Source: an uncultured bacterium (GTDB lineage Bacteria; Edwardsbacteria; CAYGWX01). Taken from it: a stretch of 64,000 bases of DNA. The stretch lies in contig CAYGWX010000005.1 in NCBI GenBank assembly GCA_964353855.1, positions 7,120 to 71,119 on the forward strand, given 5' to 3'. Shown here in pieces: positions 8,116-16,952 of this stretch (position 1 is the first letter of the stretch; every line of letters starts with the position of its first letter). The notes beneath the pieces were generated by a model that was given only the letters and a program-made list of their open reading frames with translations, did no database searches and was not told the DNA's origin. Position numbers and translations under genes: made by a program.

Positions 8116-11100
8116 ATGACTTCCGAGACCGAAACCATCGGACTCCCCAGTGAGGAAAAGGACCTGGCCTCCCTGGTCGGCAAGCGGGTCATCGAGGATA
8201 TGCTCGCGGCCATCATCGGTTATCTGCCGACCCGGGCTGCCCTGTTCGATCCCCAGGGCCGGGCTCTCGTCGAGCTCTCTCCCTGTGACTATTGCCAGGC
8301 CCTGAAAGAACGGGACGGTTCCCCGGTGTGCACCGGGTTTTACTCGTCCTTCGTACAGGATACCGCACGGACCCAGACCCCACTGGAGCGGTCTTGCCCC
8401 GGAGGCTGCCTGATGCACTCCGAGCCCGTTCTGTTCGGCGGCCACACCCTGGGCGTCCTCCTGCTCCGTCTCTCGGCTCCCCCCACGGATCCGGCCGCGC
8501 TTGCGCCCATCGCCGATGCGTTCTCTCTTCCCAGTGAGGTTTTGCTCCAAAAGGCAGGCCGGGTCCCGAACTTCCCCGAGCCTCTCGTGCTGGCTGCCCG
8601 GGACCATCTCGCTCAAACCGCACGCTTAATCCCCGAACTCTACCGGGCTGTGCTGGCCGAACGCAAGGCGCGGGAACTGGCCGCCATCCAGGCCATCGTC
8701 GCCACGGTCAGCCAGGCCAAGGACGCCAAGAGCCTGGCCAAGCGCGCCATGGAGACGATCCTGGAGCTCCTGCATCTGGAGATCGGGGGCCTCGCTTTCT
8801 ACGATTCCCAAAAGGGCGAATTGGTCACCGCCGCGATCATCGGACTTCCCCCGGAGTTGGCGGTCCATTATGCCCGGATTTCCCTCAAGACGGGTTCCGG
8901 CATCGCAGCCCAGGTCGCCAAGACCCACCAGCCTATTTTGGTGACGGATGTCTCCCAGCCTTCCTTCACGGTGGGCAATTCCCAGGAAGTGATCAAGCAG
9001 CTCCGCATCTCCTCCCTGGTGATCATGCCGCTCCTCGTAGCCGGGGAGTTCGTCGGCGGCATCGAGGTCGCGGCCCAGGGCGAGCGGCGCTTTACCCAGG
9101 AAGATCTCGACCTCATTTCCTCGGTCGCCACTCCCCTCGGCGTGGGCCTGAGGCGCCTCCGCCTGCAAGAGGACCTCCAGACCCGGAACCAGGAACTCCT
9201 GGCTTTGAACTCCATCACGGCCAGCATCAGCCGCTCCCTGAACCTCGAGGCCATCCTCCACGATTCCCTGGACAACATCATCGAGCTCTTCCAGGCCCAG
9301 GGCGGGACGCTTTATCTCGTGGACGAGGCCGGGGAACGCCTCATCCTCTCCGCCTCCCGCAATGCGCCGGACTGGTACCTGACGATGGCCGGGACCCTCC
9401 CCTTCGGCGCGGGCCTCGGCGGTAAGACCGCCAAGGCGGGCGGCCCACCCCGCGTCGGGAACATGGCCGACCTCTACCAGGACTATCCCGACATCCTCCG
9501 CCGCATGGAGGAGACCTACGGCAAAGGGGGGGAGACCCTCTATGTCGCGGCTCCCCTGCTCTCCCGGGACCGCGTCCTCGGGGTCATGCATCTCGTGTTT
9601 CGCGGGCCCCGGGAGTTCCGCCCCGAGGAGCTCGGCCTTCTCGGCTCCATCGGGAACCAGATCGGCCCGGCCATCGAGAACGCCCGGCTTTACGAATCCG
9701 AGCACCGCCGCCGGGCCCAGCTCGCCGGGCTCTCCGAGATCGTCCGGGCCCTTTCCGCGGAGCACGATCTCGGGACCCTGCTCAAGATGATCGTGACCCG
9801 CGCCGCCGAGGTCATGCACGCCCAGGCCACCAGCCTGATGATGTGGGACGAGGAGGAAGAGCATCTCCTCATCCGGGCCAGCCAGGGCCTCAGCCCGAGA
9901 TACGCTTCCGAATACCGCATTCCCCGGGAACGGACCCTGAATCTGGAGACCTCCCCCGACGGAAGGTTCGTTCCGATCATTCTCGCTGAACTCGCCGAAC
10001 AGCCCTTTGGAAAAATGGAGTTTAACAGGGAAGAAGGCCTCTGTTCGTTATTGACCATCCCCCTCGCCGGGTCCAGGACCCCAATCCATCGGGGAAGGAG
10101 GGCCGGGCTCTCCGGGCTCCTGAACATCTACAGCAAGGGCGAGCCCCGGGAGTTCCGTCCCGAAGAGGTGGAGCTGGCCGCCATCTTCGCCGACCAGGCC
10201 GCCGTGGCCCTGGACAATGCCCGCCTCCTCGCCGAGCGCGAGCGTCGCATCGCCCAGCTCGGGGTCCTGAACCAGATCAGCCAGGCGATCAGCGCCACCC
10301 TGCGCTTCGACCAGCTTCTGGATTTGATCTACTGGCAGGTCAGCCGAGTCATGGATACGGCCAACTTCTACATCGCCCTGGCCTATCCGGAGAAGAACCT
10401 CCTGACCTTCGAATATTTCGTCGAGGACCGCAAGCGTTCGGAGCGCCAGAGCCGGCAGATGGCCAACGGCCTGACCGAACACATCCTGCGCAGCCGGAAA
10501 CCCTTGCTCATCTCCGGAAACATCGCCGCAGCCTGCCAGGACCTCGGGGTCGAGCTGATGGGTCGCCTGTCTCAATCTTATCTCGGGGTTCCGATGACGA
10601 TCGGCGAGACCATCATCGGGGTCATTGCGGTGCAGAGCTATACCCGTGAAGATGCTTACGGCACGGACGACCAGGAGCTCCTGGCCACCATCGCCCACCA
10701 GGCCGCCATCGCCGTGGAGAACGCCCGGCTCTACGAGTCCACGAGCCAGCGCATGAAGGAGATCGGCATCCTCTATCGCATCGCCCAGAGCCTCTCCACC
10801 TCCCTGGACCTGGACAGCCTGCTGGCGAGCTTCCTCGAGGTCCTGAACCAGGAGCTCGGATACCGCTGGGCCATCCTGCTCCTGGTGGACAGGGAGAAGA
10901 ATGAGCTGTTCATCCGGGCCTGCCCTCCGGATTATCCCCAGGAGGTCCAGGAGAAGGTCCGGTTCAAAATCGGGGCCGAGGGGATCTCGGGGCACGTGGC
11001 CCTGACCGGCGAGCCCGTGGTCCTTTCCGACGTCACCCGGGATCCGCGCTATGCCCCCGGACTGATCCAGGCGCGCTCCGAGATCGCGGTTCCGCTGAAG

Positions 11101-12846
11101 ATCGGGGGGGAGGTCATCGGAGTCCTGGACATCGAGGACCCGGCTCCCGGAGCCTTCGGGGACCGCGACCTCCGCCTGCTCACCTCCCTCGCCGCCCAGG
11201 TGGCCATCGCCATCGAGAACGCCCGGCTCTACCAGGCCACCTCGGAGCGCGCCAAGGAGCTGGCCATCCTCTACGATATCGGGCGCAACCTTACCCTGAA
11301 CCTGGACCTGGATAGTCTCCTGGACCAGATTTTAGGCGCCATGCAGGAATCCTTCGGCTACCTGAACTGCGCCATCCTGCTCCTGGACAGGGAGAAGAAC
11401 GAGCTCTTCATCAAGGCGGCCCGGGGATACACCGAGGAGGTCATCCGGAACCGCCGCATCCGGATCGGGGAGGAGGGCATCACCGGCTGGGTCGCGGCCC
11501 GCGGGGAGCCCCTGAACGTCCCCGATGTGAGTCGGAACGGGCGCTACGTCGAGGGGGTGGTCTCCAGCCGCTCCGAGCTGGCCGTGCCCCTGCGCATCGG
11601 CCAGGAGGTGATCGGGGTCCTGGACGTGGAGAGCCAGGAGGTCGCCGCCTTCCAGGAGAAGGACCTGCGCATGCTCACCTCCTTCGCCGCCCAGGCCGCC
11701 ATCGCCATCGAGAACGCCCGGCTCTACGCCAACCTCGAGGAGCGGGTCAAGGAGCTGGACATCCTCTCCCTGATCACCGGTCGGATCAACGCCGGTATCT
11801 CCATCTCCGAGACCCTGGAGACCGTCGTGGACGAGATCCGCAAGGTCATCCCCTACGATACCGCCATCCTCTACTTCTCCGATTCCGGGGGGACGACGCT
11901 TCACCCCCAGATCGTGCGGTTGGCCTCGTCGGAATTCCCCCAGGATTACATCGACCGGCTCCGCACCTTTCCCGTGCCTTTCGGCAAGGGCCTGGTCGGG
12001 TGGTCGGCCCAGGAGAAGGAGCCCTTGAACTGCCCCAACGTCCTCCAGGACCCCCGGCGCCTTGACCTTCCCGAGACGCCCGCTCTTCTCTCGGTCCTGG
12101 CCGTTCCCTTCGTCGTGGAGCAGAAGACCATCGGGGCCCTGGCCCTGTCCCAGCTCGGAGAGCGGCGGTTCGCTTCCTCCGATCTCCGGCTCCTTCGGGT
12201 CCTGGCCGACGATTGCGCCATCGCCATCCACAAGGCCCGGCTCTTCGACGAGACCCAGCGTCTGGCCATCCTGGACGGCCTCACCGGCCTGGCCAACAGC
12301 CGGCACTTCTACAACGAGCTCAAGAAGGAGATGGAGCGCGCCGAGCGCTACAGCAAGCCTGTGTCCCTCATCCTCTTCGACATCGATGACTTCAAGAAGG
12401 TCAACGATTCCCTGGGCCACCAGGTCGGGGACAACCTGCTCCGCGAGATGGCTCAGATCCTGCCCACCCTCACGCGCAAGAGCGACCTCCTGGCCCGCTA
12501 CGGCGGGGAGGAGTTCGCCGTGTTGCTGCCCGAGACCAGCCGGGAGCACGCCCTGGCCACAGCCGAGCGCATCCGGGCCAAGGTGGAGGGCCATGTCTAC
12601 CCCGGCGTGGACCTTCCCCGGGGCCGGATGACGATCAGCCTGGGAGTCGCCACCTATCCCTACGATGCGGCCACCCACCGGGATTTCGTCCGCGCCGCGG
12701 ACATCGCCCTGTACGCCGCCAAGCGGGCCGGAAAGAACCGGGTCTTCTCCTATGAGACCTTGAGCCTCAAGCAGTCCCCCGCCCCCGGCGGGGCCGGGGG
12801 GGAGCCTGACACCGGCTACGAGTTCCGCGGCTCCCCGCCTGAATGA
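8116..12846 (+). CDS. Giant multidomain diguanylate cyclase: N-terminal Cys-containing sensor (PocR-like), about 7 GAF domains, C-terminal GGDEF
   Basis: GAF domains are delimited by recurring AIENARLYE linker helices (six ENARLY-type plus HKARLF). The C-terminus carries RYGGEEF (GGDEF A-site) with an upstream DxLT region, so the active-site motif is intact. Confidence 0.8.
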   Translation: MTSETETIGLPSEEKDLASLVGKRVIEDMLAAIIGYLPTRAALFDPQGRALVELSPCDYCQALKERDGSPVCTGFYSSFVQDTARTQTPLERSCPGGCLMHSEPVLFGGHTLGVLLLRLSAPPTDPAALAPIADAFSLPSEVLLQKAGRVPNFPEPLVLAARDHLAQTARLIPELYRAVLAERKARELAAIQAIVATVSQAKDAKSLAKRAMETILELLHLEIGGLAFYDSQKGELVTAAIIGLPPELAVHYARISLKTGSGIAAQVAKTHQPILVTDVSQPSFTVGNSQEVIKQLRISSLVIMPLLVAGEFVGGIEVAAQGERRFTQEDLDLISSVATPLGVGLRRLRLQEDLQTRNQELLALNSITASISRSLNLEAILHDSLDNIIELFQAQGGTLYLVDEAGERLILSASRNAPDWYLTMAGTLPFGAGLGGKTAKAGGPPRVGNMADLYQDYPDILRRMEETYGKGGETLYVAAPLLSRDRVLGVMHLVFRGPREFRPEELGLLGSIGNQIGPAIENARLYESEHRRRAQLAGLSEIVRALSAEHDLGTLLKMIVTRAAEVMHAQATSLMMWDEEEEHLLIRASQGLSPRYASEYRIPRERTLNLETSPDGRFVPIILAELAEQPFGKMEFNREEGLCSLLTIPLAGSRTPIHRGRRAGLSGLLNIYSKGEPREFRPEEVELAAIFADQAAVALDNARLLAERERRIAQLGVLNQISQAISATLRFDQLLDLIYWQVSRVMDTANFYIALAYPEKNLLTFEYFVEDRKRSERQSRQMANGLTEHILRSRKPLLISGNIAAACQDLGVELMGRLSQSYLGVPMTIGETIIGVIAVQSYTREDAYGTDDQELLATIAHQAAIAVENARLYESTSQRMKEIGILYRIAQSLSTSLDLDSLLASFLEVLNQELGYRWAILLLVDREKNELFIRACPPDYPQEVQEKVRFKIGAEGISGHVALTGEPVVLSDVTRDPRYAPGLIQARSEIAVPLKIGGEVIGVLDIEDPAPGAFGDRDLRLLTSLAAQVAIAIENARLYQATSERAKELAILYDIGRNLTLNLDLDSLLDQILGAMQESFGYLNCAILLLDREKNELFIKAARGYTEEVIRNRRIRIGEEGITGWVAARGEPLNVPDVSRNGRYVEGVVSSRSELAVPLRIGQEVIGVLDVESQEVAAFQEKDLRMLTSFAAQAAIAIENARLYANLEERVKELDILSLITGRINAGISISETLETVVDEIRKVIPYDTAILYFSDSGGTTLHPQIVRLASSEFPQDYIDRLRTFPVPFGKGLVGWSAQEKEPLNCPNVLQDPRRLDLPETPALLSVLAVPFVVEQKTIGALALSQLGERRFASSDLRLLRVLADDCAIAIHKARLFDETQRLAILDGLTGLANSRHFYNELKKEMERAERYSKPVSLILFDIDDFKKVNDSLGHQVGDNLLREMAQILPTLTRKSDLLARYGGEEFAVLLPETSREHALATAERIRAKVEGHVYPGVDLPRGRMTISLGVATYPYDAATHRDFVRAADIALYAAKRAGKNRVFSYETLSLKQSPAPGGAGGEPDTGYEFRGSPPE

Positions 12847-12895: not shown

Positions 12896-13105
12896 CCACT
12901 CCCTGGAGTGGAGCTTCCACTCACCTGAGTGAAGCCGCCACTCACCTGAGTGAAGCCGTCGCTCCCCTGAGTGAAACCACCACTCACCTGAGTGAAGCCG
13001 CTACTCACCCCAGTGAAGCCGCCACTCACCTGAGTGAAGCCGTCACTCCCCGGAGCGGAGCCGTCACTCTTAGGAGTGGAGACATCACTCCCCCTGGTAT
13101 CGGGG
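12896..13105. repeat. Array of about 9-10 tandem 21-bp direct repeats (consensus CACTCACCTGAGTGAAGCCGC), each with a 7-2-7 inverted repeat TCACTCA-cc-TGAGTGA
   Basis: Read directly from 12896 to 13105. Units are contiguous with no spacers. The 21-bp period equals two helical turns. Sits between the DGC stop and the pilT start. Confidence 0.8.
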
Positions 13106-13161
13106 GGACCACCCCCTTGACCCTGAGGCCCTAAATCTGGTAAACTCTTAGCTAAATTACG

Positions 13162-14304
13162 ATGCCCGAAAACGACTTCACCCACGAATACGGCGAAGCG
13201 CCCCTGGTTTCGCTCGAGGCCCTGCCCATCGACCAGCTCCTCGAGGAGCTGGTCCTGCGCAACGCCTCGGACATCCACCTCCGGGTGGGCGAGCCCCCGG
13301 CCTACCGGGTGTTCGGCGAGCTCACCCGCTCCGAGCTGACCCCCCTCTCCGCCGACGAGCTCAAGAAGCTCCTCTACGCCGTGATGAACGAGGAGCGGCG
13401 CGAGCGCTTCGAGCGCACCTGCGAGCTGGACATGTCCTACGCCATCCAGGGCGTGGCCCGCTTCCGCATCTCGGTCTTCCGCCAGCGCGGGGAGATCGGC
13501 GCCGTGCTCCGGGTCATCCCGCTCAAGCTCAAGTCCATCGACGACTGGGGCCTGCCCCAGATCATCAAGCAGTTCGCCACCCTGCCCAGAGGGCTCATCC
13601 TGGTCACCGGGCCCACCGGCTCCGGCAAATCCACCACCCTCTCCGCCATGGTGGACTACATCAACGAGTCCCGCCGGAGCCACATCATCACCATCGAGGA
13701 CCCCCTGGAGTACGTGCACCACGACAAGCAGTCCGTGGTGGAGCAGCGCGAGATCGGGGTGGATACCCGTTCCTTCGCCTCGGCCCTGGCCCACGTCATG
13801 CGCCAGAATCCGGACGTCATCATGGTCGGCGAGCTCCGCGACCATGAGACCATGTCCCTGGCCATGTCCGCGGCCGAGACCGGGCATCTCGTCCTCTCCA
13901 CCCTGCACACCATGGACGCCTCCCAGACCGTGGGCCGGATCATCGACGCCTTCTCCCCTGAGGAGCAGACCCAGGTGAGGCTCCAGCTCTCCACCGTGCT
14001 CCAGGGCGTGGTCTCCCAGACCCTGCTCCGTCGGACCGACGGCCCGGGCCTGGTGGCCGCCTTCGAGATCATGACCTGTACCGGGGCCATCAAGAGCCTC
14101 ATCCGCGAGGGCAAGACCCCGCAGATATATTCCCTGATCCAGACCGGCAGCCGTTACGGCATGCAGACCCTGGACCAGTCTTTGAAGGAGCTTCTGTTCA
14201 AGGGCATCGTCTCGGCCGAGGATGCCCTGGCCCGCTCGGCCAACCCCCAGGAGTTCGAGGGCGCCATCAATGCCCTCCAGCCCCCCCGGGGCCCGGGGGG
14301 CTGA
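13162..14304 (+). CDS. pilT: Type IV pilus retraction ATPase PilT family
   Basis: Walker A GPTGSGKST, Asp box, Walker B DVIMVGELRD, His box, and the PilT signature AIKSLIREGK. Confidence 0.85.
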   Translation: MPENDFTHEYGEAPLVSLEALPIDQLLEELVLRNASDIHLRVGEPPAYRVFGELTRSELTPLSADELKKLLYAVMNEERRERFERTCELDMSYAIQGVARFRISVFRQRGEIGAVLRVIPLKLKSIDDWGLPQIIKQFATLPRGLILVTGPTGSGKSTTLSAMVDYINESRRSHIITIEDPLEYVHHDKQSVVEQREIGVDTRSFASALAHVMRQNPDVIMVGELRDHETMSLAMSAAETGHLVLSTLHTMDASQTVGRIIDAFSPEEQTQVRLQLSTVLQGVVSQTLLRRTDGPGLVAAFEIMTCTGAIKSLIREGKTPQIYSLIQTGSRYGMQTLDQSLKELLFKGIVSAEDALARSANPQEFEGAINALQPPRGPGG

Positions 14305-14309
14305 CGGGC

Positions 14310-14504
14310 TTGAAGGTTCGTGATATGATCAAGAGGATCGAGACGGATGGCTGGTTTTTAATAGCCACGAAAGGCAGCCACCGCCAATACAAGCATCCCA
14401 CGAAACTGGGACGGGTAACCATTGCCGGCCAGCCTAACCATGACTTGGCCGCCGGAACCTTGAACAGTATCCTGAAGCAGGCCCGACTGAAGGAGTTGAA
14501 CTAG
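14310..14504 (+). CDS. hicA: HicA-family mRNA interferase toxin
   Basis: 64 aa with a YcfA/HicA-like KGSHRQYKHP motif. 5 nt after the pilT stop. Local GC is about 52% against about 68% in flanking DNA. Confidence 0.75.
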   Translation: MKVRDMIKRIETDGWFLIATKGSHRQYKHPTKLGRVTIAGQPNHDLAAGTLNSILKQARLKELN

Positions 14505-14506
14505 CA

Positions 14507-14719
14507 ATGCACCGCTTCCTTATCGTCATCGAAAGGGCCGACGGGAACTATTCGGCCTATTCTCCGGATCTTCCGGGGTGCGCGGCCACCGGCGCGACCC
14601 GCGAAGAGGCCGAACGGAACATGCACGAGGCCATCGAGATGCACGTTCGGGGGCTTGAGGAGGACAAGCTTCCTGTGCCCGAGTCCAATTCCTTCGCCGA
14701 ATACTTAGCCATACCATAA
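14507..14719 (+). CDS. hicB: HicB-family antitoxin
   Basis: 70 aa with the UPF0150/HicB N-terminal fold signature (YSAYSPDLPGCAATGATREEA). 2 nt after hicA. Confidence 0.7.
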   Translation: MHRFLIVIERADGNYSAYSPDLPGCAATGATREEAERNMHEAIEMHVRGLEEDKLPVPESNSFAEYLAIP

Positions 14720-14802
14720 GGGCAGCTAACCAACGAACCGATGTTTCCGTCCACCCGTCTAAGCGTTCAACCGTCTAACTTTTGCAGGGTGGGTTGATCC
14801 CC

Positions 14803-15873
14803 ATGCAGATGCTGGACCTGCTCTACGCCACCTTCACCAAGAACGCCTCCGACCTCGTCCTGAAGGCCGGCAGCCCGCCCCTGGTCCGCATCCAGGGCGA
14901 GCTCATCCCCCTGGCCTATCCGCCCCTCACCGCGGACGAGACCCGCGCCCTGGTCCTCTCCATCCTCACCCGGGTCCAGGTGGAGAAGCTGGAGCGGGAC
15001 CTCGAGCTGGACATCGCCACCAGCCTGTCCAACCTCGCCCGCTTCCGGGTGAACGTCTTCCACCAGCAGGGAACCCTGGCCATGGTCGCCCGGGTGGTGA
15101 GGAGCAAGATCCCCAGCCTGGATGACCTCGGCCTCCCGCTCGCGGCCAAGGCCCTGGCCTTGAAATCCAGGGGCCTGGTCCTGGTGACCGGCCCGGCCGG
15201 GTGCGGCAAGTCCACGACCCTGGCGGCGCTCTTAGAGTTCCGCAACCAGACCCTGCCCTGCCACATCATGACCATCGAGGACCCCATCGAGTTCGTCTAC
15301 CTGGGCAAGAAGGCCCTGGTCAACCAGCGCGAGATCGGGGTGGACACCCTCTCCTACGCCGAGGCCCTGCGCAGTGTCCTGCGCCAGGACCCGGACGCCA
15401 TCATGGTCGGGGAGCTCCGCGACCGCGAGACCCTGGGCATGGCCCTGACCGCGGCCGAGACCGGGCATCTGGTCCTCTCCACGATGCACACCTCCTCGGC
15501 CGTGGAGACGATCGACCGCATGGTCGGCATCTTCCCGGCCCACCAGGAATCCCAGGTCCGCCTGCAGATCTCGGTGAACCTGGGCGGCATCATCTGTCAG
15601 CAGCTCCTCGCCCGGGCGGACGGCAAGGGCCGGCTCCCGGCCTATGAGATCCTGCTGGTCAACGCCGCCGTGCGTTCCCTGATCCGCGAGGGCAAGACGG
15701 CCCAGCTCCCCTCCGCCATCCAGACCGGGGCCAGGCTGGGCATGTCCACGATGAACGCCTACCTCGCCGAGCTCGTCAAGCGGGGCGTGGTGACCCTCGA
15801 GGAGGCCATGAAGAAGACCGAGACCCCGGAGGAGCTGAAGGGGATGGCCGGAAGCAAGCCTTCGGCTTCCTAA
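14803..15873 (+). CDS. Second PilT/PilU-family ATPase paralog
   Basis: Walker A GPAGCGKST, DAIMVGELRD, and AVRSLIREGK. Start moved to the ATG at 14803 (MQMLDLLY); the track begins at a TTG at 14782. Confidence 0.8.
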   Translation: MQMLDLLYATFTKNASDLVLKAGSPPLVRIQGELIPLAYPPLTADETRALVLSILTRVQVEKLERDLELDIATSLSNLARFRVNVFHQQGTLAMVARVVRSKIPSLDDLGLPLAAKALALKSRGLVLVTGPAGCGKSTTLAALLEFRNQTLPCHIMTIEDPIEFVYLGKKALVNQREIGVDTLSYAEALRSVLRQDPDAIMVGELRDRETLGMALTAAETGHLVLSTMHTSSAVETIDRMVGIFPAHQESQVRLQISVNLGGIICQQLLARADGKGRLPAYEILLVNAAVRSLIREGKTAQLPSAIQTGARLGMSTMNAYLAELVKRGVVTLEEAMKKTETPEELKGMAGSKPSAS

Positions 15874-15900
15874 AGAAAAGGATAATCCGCCAAAAGAAGA

Positions 15901-15928
15901 GGGCCGCCCAATGGGCGGCCCTTTAATT
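15901..15928. terminator. Bidirectional rho-independent terminator between convergent pilT paralog and antitoxin
   Basis: GGGCCGCCC-aat-GGGCGGCCC stem-loop followed by TTTAATT on the plus strand and a T-rich run (CTCTTCTTTTG) on the minus strand. Confidence 0.6.
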
Positions 15929-15952: not shown

Positions 15953-16189
15953 TCAGGAGCTGCGTTTCCGGGGTCCGAGGCCGTGCTTCGCTCGCCCGGA
16001 CAGTCGCCGTTTGATCTCGGCCAACCCGATCGTCGCGGCCTTGCCTTCCCTTTCCTTGGCCTGGCGCAGACAGCGCAGGTCCTCGTAATCCTCCAGCTCC
16101 TCCCGGAGCCTTAGGAATTGAGCATAGGGAAGAACGGCAAAGGCCTTTCTCCCGTTTTTTTCGATGATCTGGGCTTCCATATGGCTCAT
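15953..16189 (-). CDS. Type II antitoxin (Phd/YefM or RelB-like) partner of the upstream RelE-type toxin
   Basis: 78 aa, acidic/basic with a predicted N-terminal beta-strand then helices (KNGRKAFAVLPYAQFLRLREELED). 9 nt downstream of the toxin gene. Local GC is about 50%. Confidence 0.55.
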   Translation of the reverse strand: MSHMEAQIIEKNGRKAFAVLPYAQFLRLREELEDYEDLRCLRQAKEREGKAATIGLAEIKRRLSGRAKHGLGPRKRSS

Positions 16190-16198
16190 GGCTTCTCC

Positions 16199-16447
16199 CT
16201 ATCGGTAGGCTTCTCTGCGGTGGCGGATGCGATAGACGATGATCGTTCTCCCGTCCACTTCGAACAGCACGCGGTATGCGCCGACTCGCATGCGGTATTC
16301 CGGAGTGAAGTTCGTGAGGTGCTTCACGTCTCCCCGCAGGTCTTTTAGCATGGTTTCGATCTTTTCCAGGATACGGCTCTGCGCCCGGGTCGAAAGACGC
16401 TCCAGATCCTTGACGGCTCCGGGCTTGAACCGGACCTCGTAGGCCAT
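16199..16447 (-). CDS. RelE/ParE-family toxin
   Basis: 82 aa ending ...RTIIVYRIRHRREAYR, the typical RelE/ParE C-terminus. Toxin-first gene order as in higBA. Confidence 0.7.
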   Translation of the reverse strand: MAYEVRFKPGAVKDLERLSTRAQSRILEKIETMLKDLRGDVKHLTNFTPEYRMRVGAYRVLFEVDGRTIIVYRIRHRREAYR

Positions 16448-16601: not shown

Positions 16602-16734
16602 AAAGGAGGCGATGAAGAAGACCGAGACCCCGGAGGAGCTGAAGGGGATGGCTGGCACCCATCCCGCGCCCTCATAGCCGCCCCCCGGCGCAATCTAAGG
16701 ATAAAGTAAAAAGGGCCGCCCAAAAGGGCGGCCC
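16602..16734 (+). pseudogene. Relic copy of the pilT-paralog 3' coding end plus its terminator hairpin (insertion scar)
   Basis: A 41-bp run (atgaagaagaccgagaccccggaggagctgaaggggatggc) is identical to 15809-15849. It is followed by ctaaggataaag and GGGCCGCCC-aaaa-GGGCGGCCC, mirroring 15873-15921. Confidence 0.7.
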
Positions 16735-16952
16735 TTGTGTTTGTGGGGCGGGGGCGAAGCCCCGCCCCCCTCCTGTTACAACTCATTACCATTTTTTACT
16801 ATTCATTACTCTTCTTTTCCTTCCGTCTCACTATCTCACCTTCACGATCCGCACAATCTCGTCATGCTGAACTTGTTTCAGCATCTCTCTTCCCGGCATC
16901 ATTGCGAGGAGCGTAGCGACGAAGCAATCTCGCCGTACCTCCTCACTCCTTT

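Follow-up and report, generated by a model that had tools for sequence, protein, structure and literature searches.

We analysed a window of 64,000 nucleotides (nt) from the genome of an uncultured Edwardsbacteria bacterium (contig CAYGWX010000005.1, positions 7,120 to 71,119), in which a hicA-hicB toxin-antitoxin pair lies between two genes for PilT-family ATPases. Four open reading frames (ORFs), read from the list of window ORFs, follow one another head to tail on the plus strand. These are pilT1 (13162-14304), coding for a PilT-type retraction ATPase of type IVa pili with 380 amino acids (aa) and the Walker A motif GPTGSGKST; hicA (14310-14504), with a TTG start, coding for a HicA-family toxin of 64 aa; hicB (14507-14719), coding for a short HicB antitoxin of 70 aa that holds the N-terminal HicA-binding domain only; and pilT2 (14803-15873), coding for a second PilT-type ATPase of 356 aa, counted from its ATG, with the Walker A motif GPAGCGKST. 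pilT1 and hicA are 5 nt (CGGGC) apart, hicA and hicB 2 nt, and the ATG of pilT2 follows hicB at a distance of 83 nt. These distances, and the presence of two PilT-family ATPases with these Walker A variants, agree with a preliminary description of the locus.

That description also held that hicAB had been inserted between pilT genes that are normally adjacent, and comparison with the orthologous loci of relatives, which it had suggested, supports this. Orthologues of PilT2 found by search were graded at 98, 91, 89 and 68% identity. A scan of GTDB genomes with PilT2 gave relatives at no more than 53% identity, which were used only as distant outgroups, and the close relatives came from exact-protein look-ups. 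The closest comparison is with contig L082 (ENA), which is 95.7-97.5% identical to the window at the nucleotide level over pilT1, pilT2 and the GAF-GGDEF gene upstream of pilT1 (8116-12846, coding for a multi-GAF protein with a GGEEF motif). L082 has no hicAB, and its pilT2 begins 4 nt past the pilT1 stop, the junction reading ...GGG AGG GTAG CGCC ATGCAGATG... The same 4-nt junction is found in L111 and L112 (JGI). These three contigs are 94-98% identical in the pilT genes, and their alignment to the window gives ...GGGAGGGTAG CGCC ATGCAGATG... at the junction without insert. At least five of the seven contigs carrying protein P0370 have this junction as well. Contig L108 is empty at 92-95% nucleotide identity, as are L109-110 at about 92% in pilT2, pilT1 lying largely off those two contigs. 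Further out, L083 (about 86% nucleotide identity) lacks hicAB, its pilT genes being separated by 88 nt of unrelated sequence, and L084 (PilT2 68% identical in amino acids) lacks it with 12 nt between the pilT genes, so that the gap in empty relatives is 4-12 nt except in L083. Among the 80 GTDB loci, many with two or three tandem pilT genes, none has hicAB. Universal presence of hicAB at this position, which would speak against an insertion, is thus not what the relatives display: orthologous loci are empty at 94-98%, 92-95% and about 86% nucleotide identity and at 68% amino acid identity. Judged from these alignments, hicAB is an insertion into the junction of formerly adjacent pilT genes. 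The inserted segment (14305-14802, plus strand) comprises 498 nt in place of the 4-nt CGCC junction of the empty alleles, and includes the 83-nt spacer between hicB and pilT2 (14720-14802), which came with the insert and is absent from empty alleles. We placed the start of pilT2 at the ATG at 14803, which is common to the empty alleles; the TTG at 14782 falls within the insert-specific spacer. The synteny of the GAF-GGDEF gene and the pilT pair is kept in filled and empty relatives alike.

The filled form occurs in about 30 contigs from several studies (JGI, ENA and Logan; the exact-protein look-ups list 1 + 2 + 16 + 11), one of which is 100% identical to the window, and the empty form in about 10. 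In each of the 18 filled loci that were fetched, the junction architecture is identical and both hicAB ORFs are intact. The end of pilT1 reads GGG GGC TGA in filled alleles and GGA GG(G/A) TAG in empty ones; in all filled alleles pilT1 ends in GGGGGCTGA followed by CGGGC (CGGAC in L099). Given these different 3' ends, the left boundary lies within the last two pilT1 codons, or the bases were retuned after insertion. We take the boundaries of the insert, the presence/absence polymorphism and the lack of a cassette-borne upstream region as established by the aligned alleles. The insertion had been called recent. This holds in the sense of a presence/absence polymorphism at about 95% identity, but not in the sense of being private to one strain, since some 30 contigs carry it. 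On the available alleles, "recent" is best read as a polymorphism within a recombining population whose members are about 95% identical or closer, and as having arisen once the 86% lineage had split off.

Diversity within the population was counted over 16 distinct filled alleles, and the cassette was compared with the flanking pilT genes by Fisher test. Divergence of the filled alleles from the window amounts to 1-5% for the pilT genes and only 0.5-1.5% for hicA and hicB. Segregating sites number 7 of 410 in hicAB against 83 of 1180 in the flanking pilT sequence when all positions are counted (p = 1.7e-5), and 4 of 136 against 64 of 393 at third codon positions (p = 1.2e-5). The low diversity of hicAB fits a cassette younger than the coalescence of its flanks. 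Within hicA, the 16 alleles contain four synonymous polymorphisms and no amino acid change. The pilT1 tree (neighbour-joining) unites the filled alleles in one clade, with the empty L108, L111 and L112 outside it and the empty L082 inside it. The pilT2 tree places L082 with the empty alleles and divides the filled ones. This difference in the grouping of L082 between the two trees points to recombination at the junction.

Base composition had been offered as an argument for the insertion, with a GC content of about 52% set against about 68% locally. These values are right for hicA (52.8%) and for the pilT genes (67.0% in pilT1 and 68.1% in pilT2), but not for the pair as a whole, which has 56.3% (59.6% in hicB) in a window of 60.7%. 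The hicAB segment stands at the 14.5th percentile for GC among the 410-bp windows of the stretch. At third codon positions (GC3), hicA and hicB have values of 0.71-0.73, while the mean of the 44 non-overlapping long ORFs is 0.75 (standard deviation 0.12) and 32% of the ORFs are below 0.73; the GC3 values of pilT1 and pilT2, 0.94 and 0.96, are the highest in the window. These extremes suggest strong codon bias in the pilT genes, possibly through high expression. The local contrast is thus real because the pilT genes are extreme, with hicAB average for the window. As an argument for insertion it is weak by itself, and after the GC3 survey we rejected composition as decisive proof of foreign origin. 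The cassette's copies in two other hosts also have a GC content a few points under their surroundings, following that of the host (0.54 in a locus of 0.59 and 0.42 in a locus of 0.49).

Searches for a vehicle were negative throughout. There are no terminal inverted repeats in the 498-nt insert, no second copy of it within the window, no close relative of HicB on IMG/VR viral contigs, no DNA match among PLSDB plasmids, and nothing in the insert that matches Rfam; its non-coding flanks are not common to other hicAB copies. An integron-type cassette was considered and rejected: TTGA-like cores are present at both ends, neither of which fits GTTRRRY, and shuffled versions of the spacer fold at least as well. 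No convincing target-site duplication was seen either: the left junction (GGGGGGCTGACGGGC) and the right junction (GGGTGGGTTGATCCCC) are only weakly similar to each other and to the empty site (GGGAGGGTAGCGCC), there is no exact 7-mer common to them, and with their G-rich composition the similarity is likely due to chance. A literature search for hicAB together with pilT gave only papers using the term "PilT N-terminus (PIN) domain".

Both ATPases belong to the PilT/PilU family TIGR01420 of NCBIfam, with 468 bits for pilT1 and 440 bits for pilT2 against a cut-off of 319, and they are 49% identical to each other. The locus had been described as a pilT-pilT/U tandem; a reading of the second gene as pilU is not borne out by comparison with solved structures. 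The product of pilT1 scores 394 bits with PilT (5zfq, its best match) and 281 bits with PilU (9n32), and that of pilT2 scores 331-346 bits with PilT structures and 274 bits with PilU 9n32, so PilU was rejected as the identity of the second ATPase. Both also keep an AIRNLIRE-like motif (AIKSLIRE and AVRSLIRE), which we take to be a mark of PilT. On these scores the locus is a pilT-pilT paralogue pair and not pilT-pilU. It resembles the tandem pilT/pilU arrays of type IVa pilus systems in having two adjoining co-directional TIGR01420 ATPases, but differs from pilT-pilU systems in its PilT-like second gene, and from tandem pilT arrays in having a toxin-antitoxin cassette between its two genes. 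Arrays of two or three pilT genes in tandem are frequent among Armatimonadota and other retrieved loci. In one Armatimonadota clade (L009-L012, L016, L027 and L028) a gene of about 212-217 aa lies between the second and third pilT paralogues (e.g., L010 5333-5986); from its motifs LVIGEE...G...IPLYG..TSLNVAVA it is, in our own reading, presumably a SpoU/TrmH-type methyltransferase. pilT arrays can thus host further embedded genes.

The hicA product matches the Pfam family HicA_toxin (PF07927) with E = 3e-19 and 69.1 bits (gathering threshold 27), its residues 4-59 covering positions 2-57 of the 58 in the model. The TTG start is backed by homologues, whose alignment begins at residue 1 (MKVRD) with an ATG at the same position. 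Residues G22-S23-H24 are invariant in 28 homologues, and H24 aligns with an alanine position of the Burkholderia HicA chain 4c26. We take this chain to be the H24A mutant and the position to be that of the catalytic histidine. On this alignment the catalytic histidine is conserved, and HicA is predicted to be an mRNA interferase. The hicB product matches HicB_lk_antitox (PF15919) with E = 3.5e-11 and 43.8 bits (cut-off 27), over model positions 1-66 of 123 only. It aligns with the N-terminal HicA-binding domain of 4p78, 6g1n and 6g1c (residues 2-58 of the 142-143-aa chains 4p78 and 6g1n) and stops where the linker of the solved HicB structures starts; neither Pfam nor the structure alignment found a C-terminal helix-turn-helix (HTH) or ribbon-helix-helix (RHH) DNA-binding domain in this HicB, which ends at residue 70. 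Nearly all of the top 120 HicB homologues have 69-72 aa, and this uniform size indicates that the 70-aa HicB is not a truncation artefact. Among 74 metagenomic relatives, too, HicB most often has 69-71 aa, and the hicA-hicB gap is mostly between -4 and +6 nt.

The family is very large, with over 5,000 homologues each for HicA and HicB, and its conservation is unusual. The closest homologues, from unrelated gene contexts in Planctomycetota, Chloroflexota, Nitrospirota, Zixibacteria, TA06 and a Methanosarcinales archaeon, are about 80-85% identical, and the best non-syntenic ones, at 80-90%, extend the list to Sedimentisphaerales, Thermodesulfobacteriota and Brocadiales. In the two closest of the non-syntenic contexts that were examined, the cassette lies between unrelated housekeeping genes, and DNA similarity to these two copies, 78% and 70%, covers the coding region only (window 14311-14709). 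Because the DNA homology is confined to the coding region, from the start of hicA, the insert brought no promoter region. The moving unit is essentially the two ORFs, the 83-nt tail being specific to this insertion.

These features fit the Class 1 compact hicAB modules rather than the classical (Class 3/4) type of HicB. Classical systems (E. coli K-12, Yersinia pestis HicA3B3, Burkholderia pseudomallei) likewise have the toxin gene first, a HicA of the double-stranded RNA-binding domain type with a conserved catalytic histidine, and neutralisation of HicA by the N-terminal partial RNase-H-like domain of HicB. Their HicB has 142-145 aa and a C-terminal HTH or RHH that autorepresses its own promoter, whereas both this domain and a dedicated promoter region are absent here. 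In the E. coli hicAB operon, one of two transcripts favours the translation of hicB. Class 1 modules are defined by hicA lying first, a HicA of 60-85 aa and a HicB of 60-90 aa, and the lack of a DNA-binding domain, and their regulation has been stated to be an open question (Gerdes 2024, mBio 15:e03293-23, PMC10865869). The cassette described here agrees with them in gene order, protein sizes, the HicB without DNA-binding domain, the 2-nt gap and the uniform size of its homologues. It differs in having no upstream non-coding region, lying 5 nt past the stop of a host gene within the host operon, and in having its start codon inside a hairpin that spans the host stop codon. In environmental populations of ANME-1 archaea, hicAB indels separate close strains and cross-phylum hicAB transfer has been inferred (Nat Commun 2026, PMC13385816), as here; there, the variable loci are hotspots with other defence genes, whereas here the insertion is resolved to the base in a conserved operon junction of housekeeping type.

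Several sequence features bear on how the embedded genes may be expressed. Upstream of pilT1 lies a candidate promoter (13117-13146, plus strand) with a sigma-70-like TTGACC-18-TAAACT, a consensus match only, at 9/12 positions and with an extended TG. No terminator-like site was found on the plus strand between pilT1 and the end of pilT2, and neither a promoter-like nor a terminator-like site in the 83-nt spacer. A GC-rich hairpin (14263-14317, plus strand; core inverted-repeat arms 14272-14289 and 14292-14309) covers the last pilT1 codons, the stop, a G-run and the hicA TTG. Its RNA folds at -37.9 kcal/mol (z = -3.4; 0 of 200 shuffles fold as well), with no U-tract after the stem, and the empty-allele junction, over the GGAGG and ATG of pilT2, folds more weakly (-29.1, z = -1.5, and -21.8 kcal/mol). 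The hicB ATG is preceded by an AAGGAG Shine-Dalgarno sequence in the last hicA codons, encoded in the conserved ...LKE end. The 83-nt spacer holds a tandem 15/16-nt repeat (14748-14762, CGTCCACCCGTCTAA, and 14764-14778, CGTTCAACCGTCTAA) that is kept in all filled alleles, followed by a TAACTTTTG stretch and a weak G-rich run before the pilT2 ATG. It has a shuffling z-score of +0.85 and is not conserved beside other hicAB copies. The 88-nt spacer of L083 (1051-1140) has a direct repeat of its own (GTGAAAGTG, twice), and the two spacers have the short strings ACCCGT and AAGCGTTC in common, which could be coincidence or be left from an earlier event at this junction.

We propose that a compact, promoter-less hicAB was inserted once, within a species-level population, into a 4-nt, translationally coupled pilT junction. 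Afterwards the cassette would have been passed between strains, or removed from them, through homologous recombination in the flanking pilT genes, so that filled and empty alleles now coexist. The 5-nt gap, the homology beginning at the start codon and the lack of a plus-strand terminator-like site are consistent with co-transcription, and we infer that hicAB is transcribed with pilT1 as part of a pilT1-hicA-hicB-pilT2 mRNA. This would start upstream of pilT1, at the candidate promoter, and likely end after pilT2 at a GC-rich hairpin (15900-15922; a 10-bp stem with 9 GC pairs, called on the minus strand), a candidate bidirectional terminator. In this arrangement hicA would have taken over the coupled position formerly held by pilT2, and from the position of the stop-spanning hairpin we infer translational coupling of hicA to pilT1 through it. 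As its weak TTG lies in a stable stem, hicA would depend for its translation, at a low level, mainly on ribosomes that terminate on pilT1, while hicB would be translated efficiently from its ATG and AAGGAG. Through this asymmetry in translation the antitoxin would exceed the toxin in the absence of transcriptional autoregulation, and HicA would cleave mRNA when HicB is depleted. pilT2 would have lost its direct coupling to pilT1 and now sit behind the 83-nt spacer. As a whole, this explanation, consisting of a single promoter-less insertion, its spread and removal by recombination, and co-transcription with coupling, appears to us a likely account of the locus.

A number of observations weigh against parts of it. 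No insertion mechanism was found for hicAB, and no integrase or transposase, although the adjacent genes were not scanned specifically for these. The 83-nt spacer should be as young as hicAB, and yet with 8 of 83 segregating sites it does not differ from the flanks (p = 0.18), so that the low diversity of hicAB could reflect constraint and not youth. In hicB, three non-synonymous and no synonymous sites are a poor fit to simple purifying selection, though the numbers are tiny. Regarding the hairpin, there are no compensatory changes among the alleles, and a weaker hairpin is already present in the empty allele. A promoter might lie within the 3' part of pilT1, and the promoter consensus used may not be that of this lineage. 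Such tight embedding is also atypical of the family, a co-directional upstream gene lying within 30 nt in 8 of the 62 loci surveyed. For this reason promoter-less embedding was rejected as a rule for the cassette family; in this crude, ORF-based survey of the 74 metagenomic relatives it is recurrent only.

Other histories of the locus can be weighed against a single insertion. Since the window belongs to a metagenome-assembled genome, and contigs may be joined wrongly at short repeats, an assembly chimera joining a hicAB contig to a pilT locus has to be considered. But some 30 contigs, which differ in study, archive and assembler of origin (JGI, ENA and Logan) and show allelic differences throughout, have the same junctions, and we regard the chimera as refuted, its probability being negligible. 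Alternatively, hicAB could be ancestral here and have been precisely deleted more than once in the lineages with the 4-nt junction, as the nesting of the empty L082 among filled alleles in the pilT1 tree and the equal distance of empty and filled alleles from the window (95-98%) might suggest. That L082 position is explained by recombination, since its pilT2 groups with the empty alleles, and hicAB is missing from L083 (86% nucleotide identity), L084 (68% amino acid identity) and all 80 GTDB loci. Deletion would further have to recreate stop-CGCC-ATG with a GGAGG Shine-Dalgarno sequence, identical in L082 and L111 and one base off in L112, and the diversity of hicAB is about one quarter of that of its flanks. 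Ancestral presence is therefore very improbable, and insertion into an empty pilT junction is what we retain.

Two further alternatives concern the expression and function of the inserted genes. The cassette might have its own promoter in the end of pilT1 or in the junction and be expressed independently, like classical hicAB operons. Most of its relatives have 60-350 nt of upstream non-coding DNA, and a sigma-70-like match with a TG (CTGACG-17-TATGAT, 9/12 positions) is present at 14301-14329; the promoter types of the lineage may also differ from the consensus used. The -10 element of this match (14324-14329) is downstream of the TTG at 14310 and cannot serve full-length hicA, only 5 nt lie outside the coding sequences of both pilT1 and hicA, and a HicB with no DNA-binding domain could not regulate a promoter; independent expression thus seems unlikely to us. 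The embedded hicAB could also be an inert or decaying passenger whose main effect is polar, disturbing the expression of pilT2. Many strains do without the cassette, the weak TTG start of hicA is buried in a hairpin, the differences among hicB alleles are all non-synonymous, and a PADLOC defence-system scan gave no match to any model. Such decay is hard to reconcile with both ORFs being intact in 18 of 18 filled loci, with a HicA protein that is invariant despite four synonymous polymorphisms and retains the catalytic G22-S23-H24, and with the conservation of the family at about 80% identity from phylum to phylum, which speaks for a function. We consider an inert passenger improbable, and a functional pair read from the pilT1 transcript remains our preferred explanation.

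The surroundings of the pilT pair vary as well. Just downstream of pilT2, on the minus strand, lies a second strain-variable toxin-antitoxin pair (15953-16447), consisting of a phd-like gene (15953-16189; a weak match to PhdYeFM, E = 1e-3, under the cut-off) and a parE-like gene (16199-16447; ParE_toxin, PF05016, E = 5.5e-13). An imperfect direct duplication, made up of the last ~70 nt of pilT2 plus its GC-rich hairpin, flanks the pair on both sides (15806-15925 and 16604-16740), the hairpin after pilT2 (15900-15922) being duplicated at 16709-16737. The pair is absent from L082, L083, L086/087, L111 and L112. Between carriers its identity is 99.6%, in contrast to differences of 2-5% in their pilT genes. 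The allele combinations hicAB+/parDE+, hicAB+/parDE- and -/- are all present. The region 16700-16800 contains the GC-rich hairpins AAAAGGGCCGCCC, twice, and GGGGCGGGGGCGAAGCCCCGCCCC, with sub-threshold Rfam matches including Leu_leader at 36.6 bits (gathering threshold 50); these are most likely terminator-like stems and not members of the matched families.

On the other side of the locus, between the GAF-GGDEF gene and pilT1 and just upstream of the candidate promoter, a 21-nt unit (CCACTCACCTGAGTGAAGCCG) is repeated about 8-9 times in a tandem array (12896-13094) that has a higher-order period of 42 nt. Each unit holds a small palindrome, CACTCA..TGAGTG. The array could represent regulator-binding sites or a REP-like element. 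The intergenic region from the GAF-GGDEF gene to pilT1 is 315 nt long in the window, and about 168 nt long and not alignable in L082.

Our knowledge of HicAB or of pili is not changed by this locus, a clear though unremarkable example of toxin-antitoxin mobility. Class 1 modules are known, and strain-level hicAB indels and cross-phylum transfer have been documented, for example in ANME-1 (PMC13385816), so that the added value of an empty/filled pair resolved to the base, together with a model at the level of translation, is modest. For a toxin-antitoxin insertion, the locus provides the states before and after in natural replicates, some 30 filled contigs and about 10 empty ones from the same population. 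It shows that a hicAB with neither a DNA-binding domain nor a promoter can persist in a conserved operon junction. As the parE-type cassette is also strain-variable, the immediate surroundings of pilT2 accept toxin-antitoxin cassettes repeatedly. The locus also offers a concrete model for how compact hicAB modules keep antitoxin above toxin. We put forward tentatively, as a possibility we hold to be rather doubtful, that compact Class 1 modules could set the toxin:antitoxin ratio purely at translation by borrowing a host gene, hicA being reached only by ribosomes terminating on the host gene, by way of a stop-spanning hairpin that conceals its weak start codon, and hicB having a strong ribosome-binding site of its own inside hicA. 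If such translation-only control were true, it would answer the question of regulation left open for the commonest hicAB classes, and the synthesis of the toxin would be a read-out of pilT1 translation.

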